Positions 215-8,507 of a stretch of DNA of 43,229 nucleotides are shown piece by piece. Numbering within the stretch: position 1 is the stretch's first letter; each line of letters opens with the position of its first letter. The notes under the pieces were generated by a model, which did no database searches, was not told the origin of the DNA, and worked only from the letters and a program-made list of their open reading frames with translations. The stretch covers positions 1 through 43,229 of the forward strand of contig JAGOXX010000001.1 of the NCBI GenBank assembly GCA_018059485.1, in the 5' to 3' direction. Made by a program: the position numbers and the translations under genes. Source of the DNA: Aeromonadaceae bacterium. Its GTDB lineage: Bacteria; Pseudomonadota; Gammaproteobacteria; Enterobacterales; Aeromonadaceae.

Positions 215-267
215 TTGCGTCTTGCAATAAAATTTGCATTTTGCAAAGAGCGATTCGCAAAATGCGG
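215..267. promoter_or_regulatory. Three LuxO-type enhancer boxes (TTGCA-W3-TGCAA)
   Basis: TTGCGTCTTGCAA at 215-227, perfect TTGCATTTTGCAA at 234-246, TCGCAAAATGCGG at 255-267. They are ~20 bp apart and ~110-160 bp upstream of the predicted sigma-54 start site. Confidence 0.7.
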
Positions 268-350: not shown

Positions 351-367
351 TTGGCACGCTATTTTCA
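351..367 (+). promoter_or_regulatory. Sigma-54 (-24/-12) promoter
   Basis: TTGGCACGCTATTTTCA. The -24 element TGGCACG is perfect; the -12 element is TTTCA instead of TTGCA but at the correct spacing. Predicted +1 is ~377-379. Confidence 0.7.
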
Positions 368-377
368 TATACAAATA

Positions 378-453
378 CGTAAACCAGTTTTATCCCGTGC
401 TCTCTTCAGCGACAGCTGAAGTTTGGTCAACCTTCGAGTTGACCATTTTTTTT
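378..453 (+). ncRNA. Candidate LuxO/sigma-54-dependent small RNA, ~76 nt, not Qrr-like in sequence
   Basis: Bounded by the sigma-54 promoter and an intrinsic terminator. Single-stranded U/C-rich 5' part, then hairpin CTTCAGC-GACA-GCTGAAG (404-421). No credible ORF or RBS. Confidence 0.7.
424..453 (+). terminator. Intrinsic terminator of the candidate sRNA
   Basis: TGGTCAAC-CTTCGA-GTTGACCA followed by T8 on the + strand. Overlaps the last codons of the convergent kinase gene. Confidence 0.85.
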
Positions 454-2568
454 GCCAAAAATTGCTCCCAGAGCCTGCCGCAACCCCTTCGAGGTCACGG
501 GTTTGGCGACCAGATCACTCATGCCAACCTGTAGGCATGCGGCTCTATCCTCCTCGGCGGCATTCGCCGTCAACGCCAGGATCGGCAATTCGGGATAAAG
601 CCTCTTGAGCCTCTTGGATGCCTCCAGACCATCCATCTCCGGCATGCGCAGATCCATCAGCACCAGCTGCGGCCGCTCCTGCGCCACTGCCTCCAAGGCC
701 TCGTAGCCGTTGCCCGCCAGCCGGACCGAATGCCCCATCTTGTGCAGCAACGCCTGGATCACCTGCTGATTCACCGGGCTATCCTCCACCAGCAAGATAG
801 CCAGGGGCGGCGTGGAGAGCACCTCGGCGTCAGCCACAGATTCGGCGGCGTCTGCTTCCAGCAAGGTTCGACAGGGAATACGGAACCAGAAGCAACTTCC
901 CACACCGGGCTGGCTATCGACACCGATGCGCCCCCCCATCAGCTCCACCAGATGGCGGCAGATCGCCAGCCCCAGTCCACTCCCCCCGAAGCGGCGCGTC
1001 ATGGAGGGATCCAGCTGCCGAAATGGCAAAAACAGCTCATCGCATTGCTCGGGAGCTATGCCTATCCCGGTATCATGGACGCTGAAAGCCAGCTGTGTGC
1101 CTTCAACCATCACCTGCAACCGCACCGAACCCTGACTCGTGAATTTGATGGCATTGCCTAACAGGTTGAACAGGATCTGCGTCAGACGCAGGGGATCGCC
1201 GCGCAATTTAGCGGGCAGTGCCGGGTCGATATCAACCAGCAAGGCAATCCCCTTGCTGTGTGCCTGCTCTTCGAGTTGGGTCACCACCGAATGAATGACA
1301 AACTGACTCTCAAACGGAATGGACTCCAGCGTCACCTCTTTGGACTCGATTCTCGAGAGATCGAGCAGGTCATGGAGCAGGGTCTGCAACAAGGCGGCCG
1401 AATGAGTCACGTGACGACTCAGCTCCCGCTGCGCTGGCGTCAATTCACTCTGTTCAAGCAGTTCCAACATGCCCAGAATGGCTTGCATCGGTGTCTTGAT
1501 CTCATGACTCATGACGGCCAGAAACTGCGATTTGGCGCGGTTAGCCGCATCGGCTCGGGCCTTGGCTCGCTTGAGCTCCAGATTGCGACCCACCAGGCTG
1601 CTGATGTCGTTGGCGGTTCCTCGATAACCGAGAAAGCTCCCCTGTTCATCAAAATAGGGATCGGCATTGATCGACAACCAGCGGATCTGCCCACTGAAGA
1701 AGACTTCAAAACGAAACGAACGGATCGGCCTATGCTCCGTGATCTCCTGACGATAGCGCTGCCACTTGCTCTGCTTTAACCGTTCCTTGTCGGTCAGAAA
1801 ATCGGTGAAGCTGCGTCCCTGGATCTGGGACATCAGCGTGGAGGTAAATTGGTCACCTTCGATATCATCGGCAAACTGAATGAACCTGTGGTCAACATCC
1901 GTCTGCCAAAACCAGTCGCTGGCCATCTCGGCGAACTGGCGGAAACACTGCTGCGAGCGCCGTAAGGCCCGCGTCTTCTCGTCTACCAGAGTCTCCAGTC
2001 GTGAACGGTAATCCACATTCAAGATGGCTTGATCCATCAATGGACGATAGCGCTCAAGCAACTCTTTGGCCTGCAGATCCAAGCGATGACGAGCAGGATG
2101 CAGGCAAAGCAGCATCATGCGCCCCTGCACCAGGTTCAATGAGCAGAGCAGCGCACTCCCCGCCATGAGGCGGACCTCCGGGGCGCAAAGGGCAAACTCC
2201 GAGGTCAGCTCGGGAGCAAACAGTGCAACCGTCTCTCCGGCCAGGACGCGCTCAAACAGAGGCCCACTCTGCCACAGCTGTTGTTGCAGCAGGGGGTGAC
2301 TGGCCACGGCACACCGCAAGGGCCCACCAGCCTTGTCGACCAGCAGGATGGCCGCATGCTCAAAGCCAATCAGGGGGCGCAGAATGCGGATCAGCGCCTC
2401 AAACAGGTTGTGGATCCCCTGGGGCTGAGTCAGAACCGAAATGCCTTTAAGCAGCCAATTGTTCTCGGTCTCCCGCCGCGCCTCACGCTCCTGGCAGGCA
2501 ACCAGCTGTAGCCGGGTTTCATGCAACTCCAGCTCCAGCTCGGCACAACTCTTCATCGGCTGCTCCAT
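427..2568 (-). CDS. Cytoplasmic hybrid histidine kinase (GAF-like, PAS, HisKA, HATPase, REC), VpsS/NahK-like
   Basis: H-box SHEIKTP, N-box NLLGNAIKFT, DTGIGI, GGSGLGL, PAS (SDWFWQTD), REC (LVEDS...LMDLRMPEMDG...KP). No TM segments. An alternative start at 2556 gives an ATGA overlap with the FIST gene. Confidence 0.9.
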   Translation of the reverse strand: MEQPMKSCAELELELHETRLQLVACQEREARRETENNWLLKGISVLTQPQGIHNLFEALIRILRPLIGFEHAAILLVDKAGGPLRCAVASHPLLQQQLWQSGPLFERVLAGETVALFAPELTSEFALCAPEVRLMAGSALLCSLNLVQGRMMLLCLHPARHRLDLQAKELLERYRPLMDQAILNVDYRSRLETLVDEKTRALRRSQQCFRQFAEMASDWFWQTDVDHRFIQFADDIEGDQFTSTLMSQIQGRSFTDFLTDKERLKQSKWQRYRQEITEHRPIRSFRFEVFFSGQIRWLSINADPYFDEQGSFLGYRGTANDISSLVGRNLELKRAKARADAANRAKSQFLAVMSHEIKTPMQAILGMLELLEQSELTPAQRELSRHVTHSAALLQTLLHDLLDLSRIESKEVTLESIPFESQFVIHSVVTQLEEQAHSKGIALLVDIDPALPAKLRGDPLRLTQILFNLLGNAIKFTSQGSVRLQVMVEGTQLAFSVHDTGIGIAPEQCDELFLPFRQLDPSMTRRFGGSGLGLAICRHLVELMGGRIGVDSQPGVGSCFWFRIPCRTLLEADAAESVADAEVLSTPPLAILLVEDSPVNQQVIQALLHKMGHSVRLAGNGYEALEAVAQERPQLVLMDLRMPEMDGLEASKRLKRLYPELPILALTANAAEEDRAACLQVGMSDLVAKPVTSKGLRQALGAIFGKKNGQLEG

Positions 2569-3761
2569 CCATCCCCCCGCTCACGAAAAAAAATCACTGT
2601 CGAGATCATCAAGTTGCCGTGCGCATTCTCACCACCACGAAAACGCCCCTGCTCGCCAAAGGTATAGGGGGCAATAAAGGGCATCCCCTGCCGCGCGAGC
2701 GACCAGGAGTCGACCACCTGGTCCATCGCCGAATCCAGCGTCAGCATGCAGCCGGCACAGAAGATGTTCAGGGCGGCTATCTGCTCAATCTCGTGGGGAC
2801 CTAGCGGAAAATCGCTCGAACGCACGGCTCGCTCGAGAAGCCCGTTGCGATTGCCATGCATCAAGATCACGGTTTCCCCTTCGTGGATCTGGGTGAATAA
2901 TCGCAAGCCGCCACGCTCCGTGACCACCTCAGGGTGAGACAACTTGTAGTAGGAGAGTCCGGCCTGCCAACCCACCTGGCGAGCCAACGGGTAGAGGGTT
3001 GTCTCGGCCAGCACATAACTACCCGGCAGGACCGAGCTCAACAGACCATGGGTCCATTCGTTGTAAGCCTCGGCTGCTGGACGATGATCAATCTCGAGTA
3101 GTTCCCGCCCCTCGGCACGCGTCACAACGCCGCGGGGACCAGCAGGCATATAGGTCGAATGAAATTGGGTCGCCACACGACAGGAGGGATAAAACAGAGC
3201 CAAGGCGATGCCCTGCGACAGGCAGCCGTCTTGGGTAAGCAGCTGGCCGCTCTGCCCCTGCAGATTATGCGCCGCACTCCCGCCGACGATGGCGACGGAG
3301 TTGCCAAGCCGCTGCTCAATCGCCGCCATCACCTGCTCTTCACACCCGGGGCTGGCATGCAGCCAGACCAGCGAGGGTAATTCGCCCGGACGATTACTGC
3401 GCTGAATTGCGGTATCCAGCAACGAGGCGACGGCGGCATCAATATCGTCTTGCAACGGTGCCAAGGCACATCCATAGGCCCCCGACTCATCCCACAGCGC
3501 CCAGCAGGCCACGGCCATCCCATCGGCGGAGTGATAACCAGCCTCCGTCATGATGCCCTGGCAGGAGCTACAGCCCATGAGCTGGCTGGCGGGAAAGGCT
3601 TGCCGCAACAGAGCCAGCAGAGTTTCTCCTGCATGCTGCTCGGTAAAGTAGACCAATACCAGACGCGGAGGCGCCTTGGAGGTCAGGTTTAGCGTGGTGA
3701 TTAACTCTTCGACCGCGCACTCACTCTGTGAGTGTAAGGAAAAGGCTGTTGCGACCCTCAC
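2553..3761 (-). CDS. nosP: FIST-domain sensor (NosP-like heme/NO-sensing protein)
   Basis: FIST motifs GCSSCQG, IVGGSAA, EIDHRPAAE, CAGC, TFGEQG...HGNLMIS. Probable GTG start at 3761 behind GGAGAG. Coupled to the kinase gene. The symbol is inferred from family and context. Confidence 0.8.
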   Translation of the reverse strand: MRVATAFSLHSQSECAVEELITTLNLTSKAPPRLVLVYFTEQHAGETLLALLRQAFPASQLMGCSSCQGIMTEAGYHSADGMAVACWALWDESGAYGCALAPLQDDIDAAVASLLDTAIQRSNRPGELPSLVWLHASPGCEEQVMAAIEQRLGNSVAIVGGSAAHNLQGQSGQLLTQDGCLSQGIALALFYPSCRVATQFHSTYMPAGPRGVVTRAEGRELLEIDHRPAAEAYNEWTHGLLSSVLPGSYVLAETTLYPLARQVGWQAGLSYYKLSHPEVVTERGGLRLFTQIHEGETVILMHGNRNGLLERAVRSSDFPLGPHEIEQIAALNIFCAGCMLTLDSAMDQVVDSWSLARQGMPFIAPYTFGEQGRFRGGENAHGNLMISTVIFFRERGDGWSSR

Positions 3762-3878: not shown

Positions 3879-4784
3879 ATGAAACCGCCACTACACGCTT
3901 ATCAACGAATTGTTGCCTTGGGTGGCGGCCATGGCTTGGGGCGTCTGCTTTCTGCCTTGCAGGGGGTCGGCACTCGACTGACCGGGATCGTCACCACCAG
4001 TGACAATGGCGGCTCATCCGGACGATTACGCCAAAGCCAGGGCTGCATTGCCTGGGGCGATCTGCGCAACTGCATTAATCAGCTGGTCACCGAGCCCAGC
4101 ACCGGCAGTCGCCTATTTGAATATCGTTTCAGTGGGGATGGCGAACTGGCCGGCCATAATCTGGGAAATCTGATGCTGCTGGCCCTGGATAACATGACCA
4201 TACGTCCACTGGCTGCCATCGAGCTCATCCGCCATATGCTCGGCGTCAAGGCGCAGATTCTTCCCATGTCCGAGCAGCCGACCGATCTACTTGGGCTCAG
4301 TCCCTGCGGAACCGCCATCTTCGGCGAAACATCCATTGATGCCTGGCCTGCGTTACCAAACAAGTTGTGGCTCGAGCCCGCCGTCACGGCAACACCCGAG
4401 GCCGTCGAGGCGTTGTTGGCCGCCGATCTGATACTGCTCGGTCCCGGCAGTTTTCTCACCAGCCTATTGCCACCCCTGCTGGTGCCCGAACTGGCGAACG
4501 CTATCCGGATCAGTGAGGCTCGATTCGTCTTTCTGGCAAACTTGCAACCGGAACTGGGGCCTGTCGGCCAGCTTTCCCTGGCTGATCAGCTAGCGTGGAT
4601 AGCTCGTCTGACGGGACGCACCATCGATAGTGTGATAGCCCCCACGGATGCCCCCGAACTCAGCACTCCCTGCTATCGCAGCGAACTGGCCGAGCAGGGC
4701 TGCTACTGGCGGCACGACAGAGACAAGCTGCTACAGGCACTCGAGCACTTGATGGCTCAACCAGAGCATGTGACCTGTCAGTGA
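3879..4784 (+). CDS. yvcK: YvcK/YbhK family (UDP-GlcNAc-binding, gluconeogenesis factor)
   Basis: VALGGGHGL, TSDNGGSSGRLR, GDLRNC, GHNLGNL, LGPGSFLTS. Confidence 0.92.
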   Translation: MKPPLHAYQRIVALGGGHGLGRLLSALQGVGTRLTGIVTTSDNGGSSGRLRQSQGCIAWGDLRNCINQLVTEPSTGSRLFEYRFSGDGELAGHNLGNLMLLALDNMTIRPLAAIELIRHMLGVKAQILPMSEQPTDLLGLSPCGTAIFGETSIDAWPALPNKLWLEPAVTATPEAVEALLAADLILLGPGSFLTSLLPPLLVPELANAIRISEARFVFLANLQPELGPVGQLSLADQLAWIARLTGRTIDSVIAPTDAPELSTPCYRSELAEQGCYWRHDRDKLLQALEHLMAQPEHVTCQ

Positions 4785-4796
4785 GCTGAGGGCAAC

Positions 4797-5150
4797 TCAG
4801 CTCAGGTGCGGCTCGGCTACCAGTTCGGCTAAGGCCTGATTGCTGGCTTGCACACTGGTGTGCAACACGGCGACTCGTTGGGAAATCTGCGGCCAATCGA
4901 GCTGCTGGCACGCCTTTTCCAGCTGTTGGGCATCACAATGGCAGAGGGTCGCCCCATAGGTGGCGCAGACTGACTTCATGGTATGCGCCAGCAGCAGCAG
5001 TTTTTCAGCATCGCGCCGTTCCAGCGCTTGGTCTAATTCGGCCAGATTTTTCTGACCATCCTCGATAAAAATCGTCACCAGCTGCGGCAATAACTCATCG
5101 CCGACATCCTGGCTCAACTGCCCGAGGATCTCTTGATCGATCCAGTTCAT
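4797..5150 (-). CDS. luxU: Hpt phosphotransfer protein, LuxU-like
   Basis: 117 aa, LAHTMKSVCATYGA Hpt motif. Directly downstream of luxO and convergent with yvcK, as in Vibrio. Confidence 0.8.
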   Translation of the reverse strand: MNWIDQEILGQLSQDVGDELLPQLVTIFIEDGQKNLAELDQALERRDAEKLLLLAHTMKSVCATYGATLCHCDAQQLEKACQQLDWPQISQRVAVLHTSVQASNQALAELVAEPHLS

Positions 5151-5178
5151 GACGCGCTCCCGTGCTCACAGGACTTTC

Positions 5179-6603
5179 TTATTTATTAGATGCAGGCAAT
5201 AGCCCTTGTTGTTGCCACCCCTGCAGCTTGCGATACAGTGTCGAGGGGCTTACCTCCAGCAGGCGAGATGCTTGTGGAATATTACCGTGACAAACCTCGA
5301 TGGCGTGAAGGATAGCCGTTCGCTCCACCTCAGACAAGGGTCGAACGGGGCTCTTATCCATCACCGGCAGCGAAATCTCGCCGCTGGTAACGCTCGCAAC
5401 CAAAGGCTCACCCCTCGCATCCTTTGGTGATCGCAACGCATCCGGCAACATGTCGAACATGACGTCGGTACCATCGTGCAGCACGACAATCTGCCGAATG
5501 ACGTTTTGTAATTGGCGGATATTGCCTGGCCACGGATAACTGAGCAAAGCCTTGCGAGCGGGTTCGCTGAAGCGCAAGAAGCGTTTGCCCTCCTCGCGTG
5601 AAAAATCCTGTAAAAAAACCTCGGCTATGCGCAACACATCGTCACCACGCTCCCGTAAGGGCGGCAGGTGCAGTGGAATCACATGGAGTCGGTAATAGAG
5701 ATCCTCGCGAAAACGTCCGGCGGCAACCTCTTGAAGCGGATCACGGTTGGTCGCACAGACAATGCGTACATCAACCTGTTCGGTCACCGAGGAGCCAACT
5801 TTTTGGAAACAGCCAGTCTGCAAGAAACGTAGCAATTTGCTCTGCAGCTCAAGCTCCATCTCGCAGACCTCATCCATGAACAGGGTTCCACCGTGAGCTC
5901 GCCCGGCAGCACCGATCCGTTCACTGACCGCCCCGGTGTAGGCCCCCTTAACATGACCAAATATCTCGCTTTCCATCAAATCTTTGGGGATCGCGGCACA
6001 GTTGAGAGCAACCAGTTGCTGCCGCTGGCGGCCACTGAGCCGATGGATAGCTTCGGCGCATAACTCCTTGCCCGTTCCGCTCTCACCGGTAATAAAAATG
6101 GTCGCCCGCGATGGTGCCGCCGTCTCTATGGTGCGATAGACCGACTGCATGGTCACGCTGGCGCCGACGAAGCCCTCAAACTGTTCGCGAGGAAAAACCG
6201 TCTGATAGCGACTGACTAATGCATTGAGGCGACGGTGCTCAATCGTATTGCGAAGCGTGACCCGAAGCCGCTCCGCCTCAACCGGTTTGACAATATAATC
6301 GTGGGCGCCCAGACGCATCGCATCCACCGCCATATCCAGCGAGCTGTTGGCAGTCATCACGATAACGCTGATACCCAGAGCCGACTCCTGCAGAACACGC
6401 AAGATCTCCATGCCCGACATATCCGGGAGGTGGAGATCGAGTAGCAGAATATCAGGCTGCAATAAGGGGATCTGACGCAGTGCCTCTGATCCGCTGGCGA
6501 CCGAGATCAGCGTAAACGCCTCATGTTTCAAATAGGCCTGATAAACGGCACTGAGCGGTGCTGAATCTTCAACCATCAACACCTTGGGAATTGGATATTC
6601 CAT
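5179..6603 (-). CDS. luxO: Sigma-54-dependent response regulator, LuxO-like
   Basis: REC (MVEDS...LLDLHLPDMSG), Walker A GESGTGKE, ESEIFGHVKGAYTGA, Fis-type HTH. The N-terminus resembles Vibrio LuxO, and the luxO-luxU-yvcK order is kept. Confidence 0.85.
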   Translation of the reverse strand: MEYPIPKVLMVEDSAPLSAVYQAYLKHEAFTLISVASGSEALRQIPLLQPDILLLDLHLPDMSGMEILRVLQESALGISVIVMTANSSLDMAVDAMRLGAHDYIVKPVEAERLRVTLRNTIEHRRLNALVSRYQTVFPREQFEGFVGASVTMQSVYRTIETAAPSRATIFITGESGTGKELCAEAIHRLSGRQRQQLVALNCAAIPKDLMESEIFGHVKGAYTGAVSERIGAAGRAHGGTLFMDEVCEMELELQSKLLRFLQTGCFQKVGSSVTEQVDVRIVCATNRDPLQEVAAGRFREDLYYRLHVIPLHLPPLRERGDDVLRIAEVFLQDFSREEGKRFLRFSEPARKALLSYPWPGNIRQLQNVIRQIVVLHDGTDVMFDMLPDALRSPKDARGEPLVASVTSGEISLPVMDKSPVRPLSEVERTAILHAIEVCHGNIPQASRLLEVSPSTLYRKLQGWQQQGLLPASNK

Positions 6604-6749
6604 GTCACCTCTTAAGCTGGCTGCGCGCTAGAGTACCCGCAAGCCAGGAAACGGGACAAGACGAGCATAGATAACTGTTTCATTTACTTTATTTTTCTCG
6701 ATAGACCAACGATGCTTGAAGCAAGTCATCCACTCAATGCCCAGAGACA

Positions 6750-8507
6750 TTGCCTATGACAATGAACTTACGCACCAAAGCACGTCTATGGTTGATGCTG
6801 TTGTTCATGCTGCCACTGGGATTTTATATAACACTCAACCACTGGGGCCAATCAACACCGGAGCTAGAAGCCGGAGTACTGCAGGCTCTGCTGCAAGATT
6901 ACCAACGACTGAATCAGCAACAACTAATATTGGCGACTCATAATACCCGTTTGAACCAACCATTGCCGCCCGAATTTAGCGCCTATTGGCAAAAAACGGG
7001 GGAGAGTTGGCAAGGTAGTCGACGGCTACCCTATTTGGATGATGCGGATTGTCGCCCCGCCCCAGGTGGATTTTTTACTCAGGGAACCACCCATAGTGTA
7101 CAGCTCTATCTGTGCGTTGATGAGGGCTCCCAGCAACGCCTGTTCTTGCTGCAGCTATCGACACTGTTCAACCAACCGATGGCACACCCCGAGCTAAGAG
7201 TGGGGCTAGTGGCTCCGGACAAAAAACTGCTGCTGCAACCGGACCCGAAAAAGGGCGTCCCAGCAGTGGCCCCCATCCAAGCAGGCTCACCTCTGATCCA
7301 GCTGTTGACCCAACCTTCCGGCTTCATCAACGATGGTGAGCAAGATGTCGCCTGGCTAACCACCGAATACGGCTGGCGACTGCTACTGATGCAACCGCAT
7401 GAGAGCCTTCTCCATTCCGGATACTCCGGCATGATTCTGATCGTGACCCTATTATTCTGTCTACTGCTGAGCTGGTTCATCCCGCTGTGGGTAAAAAGCT
7501 TCATCTATCGTCGATTTGCTTATCTGACCAAGGCTGCCGCCAAGATAGCATTGGGGGATTATTCAGGGCACTTGCCCACAGAACAGCAAGATGAATTGAA
7601 ACTGTTCCATCAGGTGTTTAACCGCATGCTAGATGTCATCCAGCATCAGAAACAACAATTGCGCGAACAGAATCAGCAACTGCAAGCCAGCAATCTGACG
7701 CTCAAAGAGACCCTGGATACAGTGCAAAGCATGCAGAGCGAACGCTTTGTCACCGCCAATAACCTGCTGCAAAACACCGAGTTGCAGATACTGCGTCAGG
7801 CTCTGAAACTACCGTTGCAACAGCTGGATGAGCACTATCGACTGTTGCTAAACCACGTTAAACAGTTAAATGAGCTGATCCATCAGACCGCCATGGATCG
7901 CCGCCTACTCAGAGAGGTGAGTCAGGAGTGTATTCCTCTGTTCATCGAAATCGAAAGCCACATGGGGCAGGCCAAGCGATTGCTCCAATCCAATGTCACG
8001 GAAAAGGGGGAACTCGGAGAGAAACAACTCTTCGCATTGCAGCCATTGCTGCAAAGCAGCGTGCAGCACCTGATGGCACAAGGCCACGCGCAAGAGCACC
8101 ACATCTATCTGCGCTGCCCATCCACCATTGAACTTGATAGTTATCCCCTGGCACTGGGTCAGGTGATCAATAATCTGGTGAGCAACTCATTGCGCCACGG
8201 ATTCAAACCCGGCATGAGTGGCGAAATCATCATCAGCGCCAAACAGGAGGGCCAGCAGGTGATTCTGACCTACCGAGACAATGGCATCGGTATTGATGAA
8301 CAGATGCAATCCAAGCTATTTCAACCATTTTTCACGGCTGATAGTGCCAACAGCGGCAACAGCCTGGGGCTCTACCTGACCAAGCAGTTGGTCCAAAAAC
8401 TGCTCCAGGGATCCATCCATTACCAGCCAATGGAGAGCCAGGGAGCCTGTTTTATCATCACGCTCCCCCTTGGTAATGTGCCAATCCGAGACAGCGCGGC
8501 GGTTTAA
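6750..8507 (+). CDS. Membrane sensor with HAMP and HATPase domains, lacking the H-box histidine (probable pseudo-histidine kinase)
   Basis: Two TM segments, HAMP, coiled coil, N-box NNLVSNSLRHGF, DNGIGI, FQPFFT. The H-box position reads LRQALKLPL and G2 reads GNSLGL. Confidence 0.75.
   Translation: MPMTMNLRTKARLWLMLLFMLPLGFYITLNHWGQSTPELEAGVLQALLQDYQRLNQQQLILATHNTRLNQPLPPEFSAYWQKTGESWQGSRRLPYLDDADCRPAPGGFFTQGTTHSVQLYLCVDEGSQQRLFLLQLSTLFNQPMAHPELRVGLVAPDKKLLLQPDPKKGVPAVAPIQAGSPLIQLLTQPSGFINDGEQDVAWLTTEYGWRLLLMQPHESLLHSGYSGMILIVTLLFCLLLSWFIPLWVKSFIYRRFAYLTKAAAKIALGDYSGHLPTEQQDELKLFHQVFNRMLDVIQHQKQQLREQNQQLQASNLTLKETLDTVQSMQSERFVTANNLLQNTELQILRQALKLPLQQLDEHYRLLLNHVKQLNELIHQTAMDRRLLREVSQECIPLFIEIESHMGQAKRLLQSNVTEKGELGEKQLFALQPLLQSSVQHLMAQGHAQEHHIYLRCPSTIELDSYPLALGQVINNLVSNSLRHGFKPGMSGEIIISAKQEGQQVILTYRDNGIGIDEQMQSKLFQPFFTADSANSGNSLGLYLTKQLVQKLLQGSIHYQPMESQGACFIITLPLGNVPIRDSAAV

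Follow-up and report, generated by a model that had tools for sequence, protein, structure and literature searches.

A conserved predicted sigma-54 small RNA locus of Aeromonadaceae with a candidate, clade-limited match of its seed to the luxU ribosome-binding site

The window analysed here, by which we mean the whole stretch of 43,229 nucleotides, likely encodes on its plus strand a sigma-54-dependent small RNA that would be switched on by a LuxO-type activator. In the clade formed by two genera of relatives, g1 and g3, we consider it somewhat more probable than an even chance that the seed of this RNA pairs with the ribosome-binding site of luxU and lowers LuxU synthesis, which would constitute a secondary negative feedback. 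At the level of sequence, this reading draws support from the identities of the genes, the promoter elements, the family-wide conservation of the RNA, the complementarity of seed and leader and the clade-limited conservation of that complementarity. By its promoter logic and its predicted feedback the RNA locus is an analogue of the Qrr RNAs, not a member of the Qrr family. The features of the locus are collected in Table 1. The assembly that holds the window (G000; 1.65 Mb, 72% complete) includes at least one contig that is 98% identical to a genome of another genus, g6, and all rankings of candidate targets were made on our own gene calls for it (1,572 genes).

Table 1 Features of the small RNA locus and the adjoining luxO-luxU cluster, in window coordinates
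Feature	Position	Strand	Remarks
LuxO-type enhancer box, 1 mismatch	215..227	+	motif TTGCA-N3-TGCAA
LuxO-type enhancer box, exact	234..246	+	motif TTGCA-N3-TGCAA; sole exact copy in the G000 assembly
Sigma-54-type promoter	351..366	+	-24 TGGCA, -12 TTTCA; predicted start ~378-379
Predicted small RNA, ~75 nt	379..453	+	fold prediction, homolog model
Invariant seed region, 19 nt	389..407	+	393-402 pairs with the luxU leader, 387-396 with the hapR/litR leader (outside the window)
Hybrid histidine kinase (HisKA, HATPase, receiver)	427..2556	-	Pfam; convergent with the RNA
FIST-domain (NosP-like) sensor	2553..3761	-	Pfam; FIST N and C domains
yvcK (CofD-like)	3879..4784	+	Pfam
luxU-like stand-alone Hpt protein	4797..5150	-	Pfam; weak match to LuxU structure 1y6d, E 4e-4
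Predicted target site	5158..5167	-	-17..-8 of luxU (start 5150); covers GGGA of the GGGAG Shine-Dalgarno
Predicted luxU leader hairpin, 6 bp + 4-nt loop	5158..5173	-	3′ arm holds the Shine-Dalgarno
luxO-like sigma-54 response regulator	5179..6603	-	Pfam; ends 28 nt before luxU

The predicted fold of the RNA comprises a single-stranded 5′ part, a 7-bp hairpin (hairpin 1; 404-421), a terminator hairpin (424-445) and a U8 tail (446-453), with a folding z of about -3.7, and the sequence matches no Rfam family. The seed is unpaired in this fold, in agreement with an earlier note on this DNA, which had placed positions 393-402 in the unpaired part of the RNA. Using a search model built from 20 homologs, we found the locus in 97 of 102 other Aeromonadaceae genomes, among them 44 of the 46 genomes of g6, with one strong match in each. 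Outside the family, 10 of 144 genomes of other families in the order matched at E ≤ 0.01, strongly only in a single genome, G199. The 19-nt seed is identical in 83 of the 84 genomes examined, the exception (G086) differing at the 3′ end of the seed, and both hairpins are 100% paired in 20 sequences, with double changes at 2 of 14 pairs. An unpaired conserved seed followed by an intrinsic terminator with a U-tail is the combination expected of an Hfq-dependent trans-acting small RNA, and an hfq gene is present. In g1, g2, g3 and g6 the RNA runs convergently towards the end of the luxU locus; the gene upstream of it is divergent in g1, g2, g3 and g5 and co-directional in g6. Genus g6 is likely Aeromonas, partly because its luxU lies apart from luxO, the arrangement described for A. 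salmonicida (PMC2556355).

Upstream of the RNA, TGGCA is present at the -24 place in all 83 homologs, a count that must be read with the fact that TGGCA formed part of homolog selection, and TTTCA stands at the -12 place in 79 of 83. The consensus -12 element of sigma-54 promoters is TTGCA, so that TTTCA (window 362-366) is one change from it; we take the pair of elements to be a conserved, non-consensus predicted sigma-54 promoter. Sequence conservation begins at about 378-379, the predicted start of transcription. An exact LuxO box lies upstream of the RNA in 29 of 83 homologs and a box with at most one mismatch in 66 of 83, against 0 and 8, respectively, of 1,541 ordinary upstream regions. 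The 13 letters of the exact box in the window are those of the V. cholerae qrr3 site identified by LuxO ChIP (PMC10328515).

The genes beside the RNA resemble a phosphorelay that could act on this promoter. We consider the names luxO-like and luxU-like to be fair readings of the sequences, because the best family for the regulator is the LuxO equivalog NF041946, albeit under its cut-off, and the Hpt protein weakly matches the LuxU structure. That equivalog is also the best family for a second LuxO paralog in G000 (C194:2204-3592), the scores of the two being 637 and 626 bits against a cut-off of 800. The second paralog is as close to Vibrio LuxO as the window paralog; the earlier note had missed it, together with the hairpin over the luxU site and the hapR/litR leader site described below. 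Paralogs that are 57-59% identical occur throughout the family, also in genomes that lack the linked luxO, and either of the two in G000 could drive the RNA. The second luxO adjoins small genes that by eye look anti-sigma-antagonist-like and kinase-like. At the window locus the gene order is luxO-luxU-yvcK. The FIST protein, whose gene has an in-frame GTG start at 3761, scores 50 bits against the NosP family (NF041558), far short of the curated cut-off of 450; nosP serves here as a label for its gene. Divergent from luxO, positions 6750-8507 (plus strand) encode a histidine-kinase-like protein that most g1 loci retain next to luxO or luxU and that may also feed into LuxU. Some 20-30 nt upstream of luxO (window ~6620-6635, minus strand) lies a motif that is conserved in g1 and is probably the -10 element of the luxO promoter.

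The window contains exactly two copies of the 10-mer TCCCGTGCTC, at 393-402 and 5158-5167, each on the plus strand. Our sequence search thereby confirmed what the earlier note had reported, namely that the seed is antisense to positions -17 to -8 of luxU, over its GGGAG Shine-Dalgarno, with 11 of 12 nt pairing when the match is extended. The extended pairing contains one U-U mismatch and its 12th base is the first base of hairpin 1; four of the ten pairs in the site are formed by Shine-Dalgarno bases. By chance, 0.15 copies of the 10-mer would be expected in the window, and one of 100 shuffles reached two copies. The 1.65-Mb assembly contains four copies, the remaining two lying inside called ORFs.

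A genome-wide ranking of targets had been proposed in the earlier note, and its outcome was favourable, with a drop in rank once accessibility was counted. Among the 1,572 leaders of G000, that of luxU has the strongest contiguous helix (-19.0 kcal/mol); when duplexfold is applied to -30 to +15, it takes fourth place. Opening the luxU target costs 6.8 kcal/mol, and once opening energies are counted (calculated with a window of -100 to +25) luxU stands third of 182 helices. Shuffled seeds put these ranks in perspective. Because the best helix in the genome was equally strong for 22 of 60 shuffled seeds, the strength of the luxU helix is by itself ordinary and proves little; it is conservation that carries the case. 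Any of five genes of the locus was placed in the top 1% by 20 of the 60 shuffled seeds, and none of the 60 ranked one of these genes first.

For comparison across relatives, a site was scored as present if it fell within the top 1% of the G000 distribution. Loci were fetched for all 31 g2 genomes and for 35 of the 44 g6 genomes that bear the RNA, one g6 locus being incomplete; start codons in the relatives were chosen by script, and that of G089 looks misplaced. By this measure 10 of 12 g1 genomes and the one g3 genome have a luxU site, as opposed to none of 31 g2 and none of 34 g6 genomes. The co-conservation of seed and luxU leader anticipated in the earlier note thus holds for 11 of the 13 genomes of g1 and g3 and stops there. 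Within g1 the site is lost in G004 and weak in G007, which keeps 7 bp. The g2 luxU leader falls inside the coding end of luxO. Group g5 keeps the seed, and in the four g5 genomes searched we found no stand-alone luxU, just an Hpt domain within a 678-aa protein. Leaders of luxO, nosP and nif3 never reach the top 1% across the relatives. The g1 and g3 LuxU proteins form one clade (support 96/95) with pairwise identities of 43-98%. Because all 13 genomes belong to this clade, the distribution of the site is best read as one gain, long retained, with no independent events. Given that the g2 and g6 genomes compared are without the site, and that the seed persists in g5 although the four genomes searched there yielded no stand-alone luxU, luxU can be no more than a target of one lineage and cannot account for the invariance of the seed.

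Two loci types beyond the standard arrangement were observed. In G003, G005 and G008, luxU stands alone and directly convergent with the RNA; the luxU site and the LuxO boxes remain, the linked luxO, FIST gene and kinase are absent, and no hapR/litR was found. In G199, the member of another family with a strong match (locus in contig C46), the same seed and a LuxO box are present, and a stand-alone LuxU-like gene lies elsewhere, with a leader that lacks the site.

The immediate surroundings of the site are also conserved in the clade. Over the 4 nt 5′ of the Shine-Dalgarno, identity among ten luxU leaders is 0.64, and the same measure gives 0.17-0.38 in luxO, nosP, nif3 and kinase leaders; further upstream, too, conservation is higher among the luxU leaders (0.48). 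The pattern G-Y-R-C before GGGA is found in seven of nine collapsed lineages that keep the core, as against 7 of 172 GGGA leaders in G000. A second, 9-nt seed match lies at -9 to -1 of luxU in G011 and G001. The invariance of the seed leaves no compensatory change visible, and the sole recurrent substitution in the site, A to G in 3 of 12 genomes, suits a leader hairpin and an RNA duplex equally.

This last point bears on the strongest alternative, to which we give a substantial but clearly smaller share of belief: that the RNA is a real LuxO/sigma-54 regulator, and that the luxU match is a by-product of a leader kept for a hairpin that hides the Shine-Dalgarno, or for some local constraint. 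Such a hairpin would serve translational coupling to luxO, and a seed that resembles an anti-Shine-Dalgarno would match the leader by chance. The 10-nt site consists precisely of the loop and 3′ arm of the predicted leader hairpin. Six genomes keep all six pairs of the stem, G001 keeps five of six with a change on both sides, and G007 keeps four; G011 has changed loop bases and kept the stem. The helices of equal strength obtained from shuffled seeds and the lack of a luxU site in most of the family point in the same direction. However, two loop bases that take no part in the stem are conserved, the G in 10 and the C in 11 of 12 genomes, and four genomes (G013, G003, G005 and G008) keep an 8-9-nt match with only one to three of the six stem pairs, three of them without an upstream luxO. 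Moreover, the top match genome-wide falls within the RNA's own locus. A CsrA site was set aside as the cause of the conservation because the luxU site lacks the A of the CsrA motif ANGGA.

The reading that we prefer, negative feedback through luxU, would proceed as follows. The FIST sensor and hybrid kinase, perhaps with other kinases, would phosphorylate LuxU, from which the phosphate would pass to a LuxO paralog. LuxO~P would bind the boxes at 215-246 and start sigma-54 transcription at about 378-379. With the help of Hfq, the seed would dock on the 4-nt loop of the luxU hairpin, replace the 5′ arm and cover the Shine-Dalgarno. Less LuxU would then cap the flow of phosphate to LuxO, with luxO translation unchanged. 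Feedback on luxU rather than luxO would have a rationale, because repressing the shared Hpt protein would damp both LuxO paralogs.

A duplex over the Shine-Dalgarno is a repressive geometry in known small RNAs. It is nonetheless conceivable, if improbable, that the RNA binds the luxU leader to an effect other than negative feedback, such as remodelling of the hairpin, cleavage of the luxO-luxU message or prolongation of LuxO~P through slower dephosphorylation. These effects would suit a site made up of the loop and 3′ arm of a hairpin in which the Shine-Dalgarno is hidden in any case, and also the fact that LuxU carries phosphate both ways in Vibrio (PMC6769237); against them, the duplex itself covers four Shine-Dalgarno bases, so that the ribosome would stay blocked.

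Least probable of all is a conserved terminator or 3′-UTR between convergent transcripts with no free trans-acting RNA: on the g6 genome G054, reads extend across the promoter and the 5′ half of the RNA and stop within the seed, a pattern consistent with read-through from a co-directional upstream gene, but the promoter and seed persist in g1, g2, g3 and g5, where the upstream gene is divergent, and a terminator needs neither an invariant single-stranded stretch nor a sigma-54 box at fixed spacing. The reads come from one stranded raw-read run (X24; 151-nt paired-end) mapped to G054. On the RNA strand, coverage is 68-97x across the promoter and 5′ half and does not exceed 8x across the hairpins, as would be expected if transcription of the upstream gene, co-directional in g6, ran on into the locus. 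No discrete short RNA was seen in this run on G054, and libraries of this kind tend to lose species of about 75 nt. Fragment ends pile up within the seed (L097:6686-6689; 9 and 14 molecules), either because priming fails to pass the hairpins, an artefact, or because the read-through transcript is processed there.

Other candidate targets at the locus and elsewhere were rejected. The weaker pairing with the nosP Shine-Dalgarno suggested in the earlier note does exist in the sequence as 8 bp with one G:U, but it is not conserved: the 8-bp form occurs in two of eight genomes, G000 and G009, which are the two closest, and the leader reaches the top 1% in none of eight g1 and none of 34 g6 genomes. 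In G000 it ranks 74th of 1,572, and the pairing needs three bases of hairpin 1. The leader of luxO ranks 360th of 1,572 and none of 40 luxO leaders reaches the top 1%, so by prediction luxO is not a target; the hybrid kinase ranks 213th of 1,572. The match of an ArsR-family gene (presumably HlyU-like), whose leader is fourth in G000, is kept in none of five relatives. The 8-nt match of a sensor-domain gene is kept in neither of two relatives, one of which has a shifted 8-nt match. Pattern searches gave no shared target: for an 11-mer-plus-ATG pattern in 103 genomes, 55 matches were listed and the 30 loci examined share no gene across genera, and a 12-mer wobble pattern in five genomes found the RNA itself and seven scattered matches.

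The family-wide main target of the seed would on this evidence be another mRNA, for which the hapR/litR leader is a candidate in g1. A HapR/LitR-like gene lies at C8:1866-2480 of G000 and has counterparts in eight of the 11 other g1 genomes and in 44 of 46 g6 genomes; with the G000 query none was found in g2, g3 or g5. Pairing at its ribosome-binding site is not predicted, the leader from -30 to +15 ranking 944th of 1,572. Further upstream, at about -71, the leader carries a 9-11-nt complement of RNA positions 387-397, the 5′ register of the seed, in nine of nine g1 leaders and in none of 21 g6 leaders. This complement forms the 3′ arm of a hairpin predicted in the 5′ leader, and with accessibility counted it stands 18th of 182. 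G007 keeps the site though the 5′ arm of the hairpin has decayed. A cis hairpin or an inverted repeat in the DNA could explain the site just as well. In G010 the matching hapR/litR sequence (C11:42828-43355) contains an internal TAG stop.

A further seed match, of 9 nt at about -100, was observed upstream of a LuxR-family autoinducer-binding regulator (G000 C130:12202-12978), which is top after accessibility. It stands in 15 of 30 loci, with shorter forms in others, and the regulator is a possible g6 target. The contig on which it lies in G000 is likely contamination or a recent transfer, because it is 98% identical to the g6 genome G062. In G054 the LuxR-family gene (C1:4708323-4708931) is in two pieces.

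Among known systems, the locus is closest in logic to Vibrio Qrr1-5 (RF00378), with which it shares a sigma-54 promoter, LuxO boxes, a U-tailed terminator and a link to the luxO-luxU locus. The Qrr covariance model finds no match in the window at the gathering score or at E ≤ 10 and none in 103 family genomes; as a positive control it finds four copies in G126, one of five control genomes. With no sequence link between this RNA and Qrr, the term convergent, which the earlier note had applied to the feedback, is fair. Qrr RNAs repress luxO translation as a negative feedback (PMC9732341, PMC13501541) and qrr1 is divergent from luxO (PMC10328515), whereas the RNA described here is single-copy, about 75 nt long, and downstream of and convergent with the luxU locus. 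The predicted feedback target is luxU and not luxO, and the match in hapR/litR is at about -71 and not at the ribosome-binding site. Of the attributes of a Qrr, the RNA has the LuxO box and sigma-54 promoter and lacks the covariance match and, by prediction, pairing at the hapR/litR ribosome-binding site and repression of luxO.

The gene cluster itself recalls the NosP-VpsS-LuxU-LuxO branch of V. cholerae, in that a FIST protein lies beside a hybrid kinase that would feed LuxU (PMC6769237). It differs in that sensor, kinase, luxU, luxO and RNA occupy one 6.6-kb cluster, and in the low NosP score of the FIST protein, so that sensing of NO is putative. A third comparison is with Spot 42.

Spot 42 acts on galK and thereby uncouples genes of one operon. 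Here, too, pairing is predicted at the ribosome-binding site of a downstream cistron, but what is targeted is a phosphotransfer protein that acts ahead of the activator predicted for the RNA itself, and the RNA has no Rfam match. Repression of galK by Spot 42 is named in PMC13501541. The literature searched contains no description of the RNA or of a small RNA acting on luxU; the locus may be listed among Aeromonas small RNAs catalogued in supplements or in subscription journals. In the account given by one review (PMC5247445), Aeromonas LuxQ/LuxU/LuxO/LitR signalling rests on genetic evidence only and no small RNA is named.

A broader proposal, which we put forward tentatively and hold to be rather doubtful as a whole, is that in Aeromonadaceae a single RNA unrelated to Qrr has taken its place as the output of the LuxU/LuxO relay. 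Within the clade of g1 and g3 this RNA would use two overlapping seed registers, one controlling the master regulator hapR/litR by way of its 5′ leader hairpin and the other acting as a throttle on the shared Hpt node LuxU that would damp both LuxO paralogs at once. If this were true, the RNA would be the missing link in LuxO-to-LitR signalling of the Aeromonas family, and would provide a case of small RNA feedback on a phosphotransfer protein. The interest of the locus is carried equally by the family-wide RNA and by the luxU loop. The RNA locus, single-copy and found in 44 of the 46 genomes of genus g6 (likely Aeromonas), offers a concrete candidate output for the LuxU/LuxO relay. If the pairing with luxU works, the feedback logic of Qrr and luxO would have evolved twice, with a different RNA and at a different node, and the clade pattern would be a natural experiment in the gain and loss of a target around a frozen seed.
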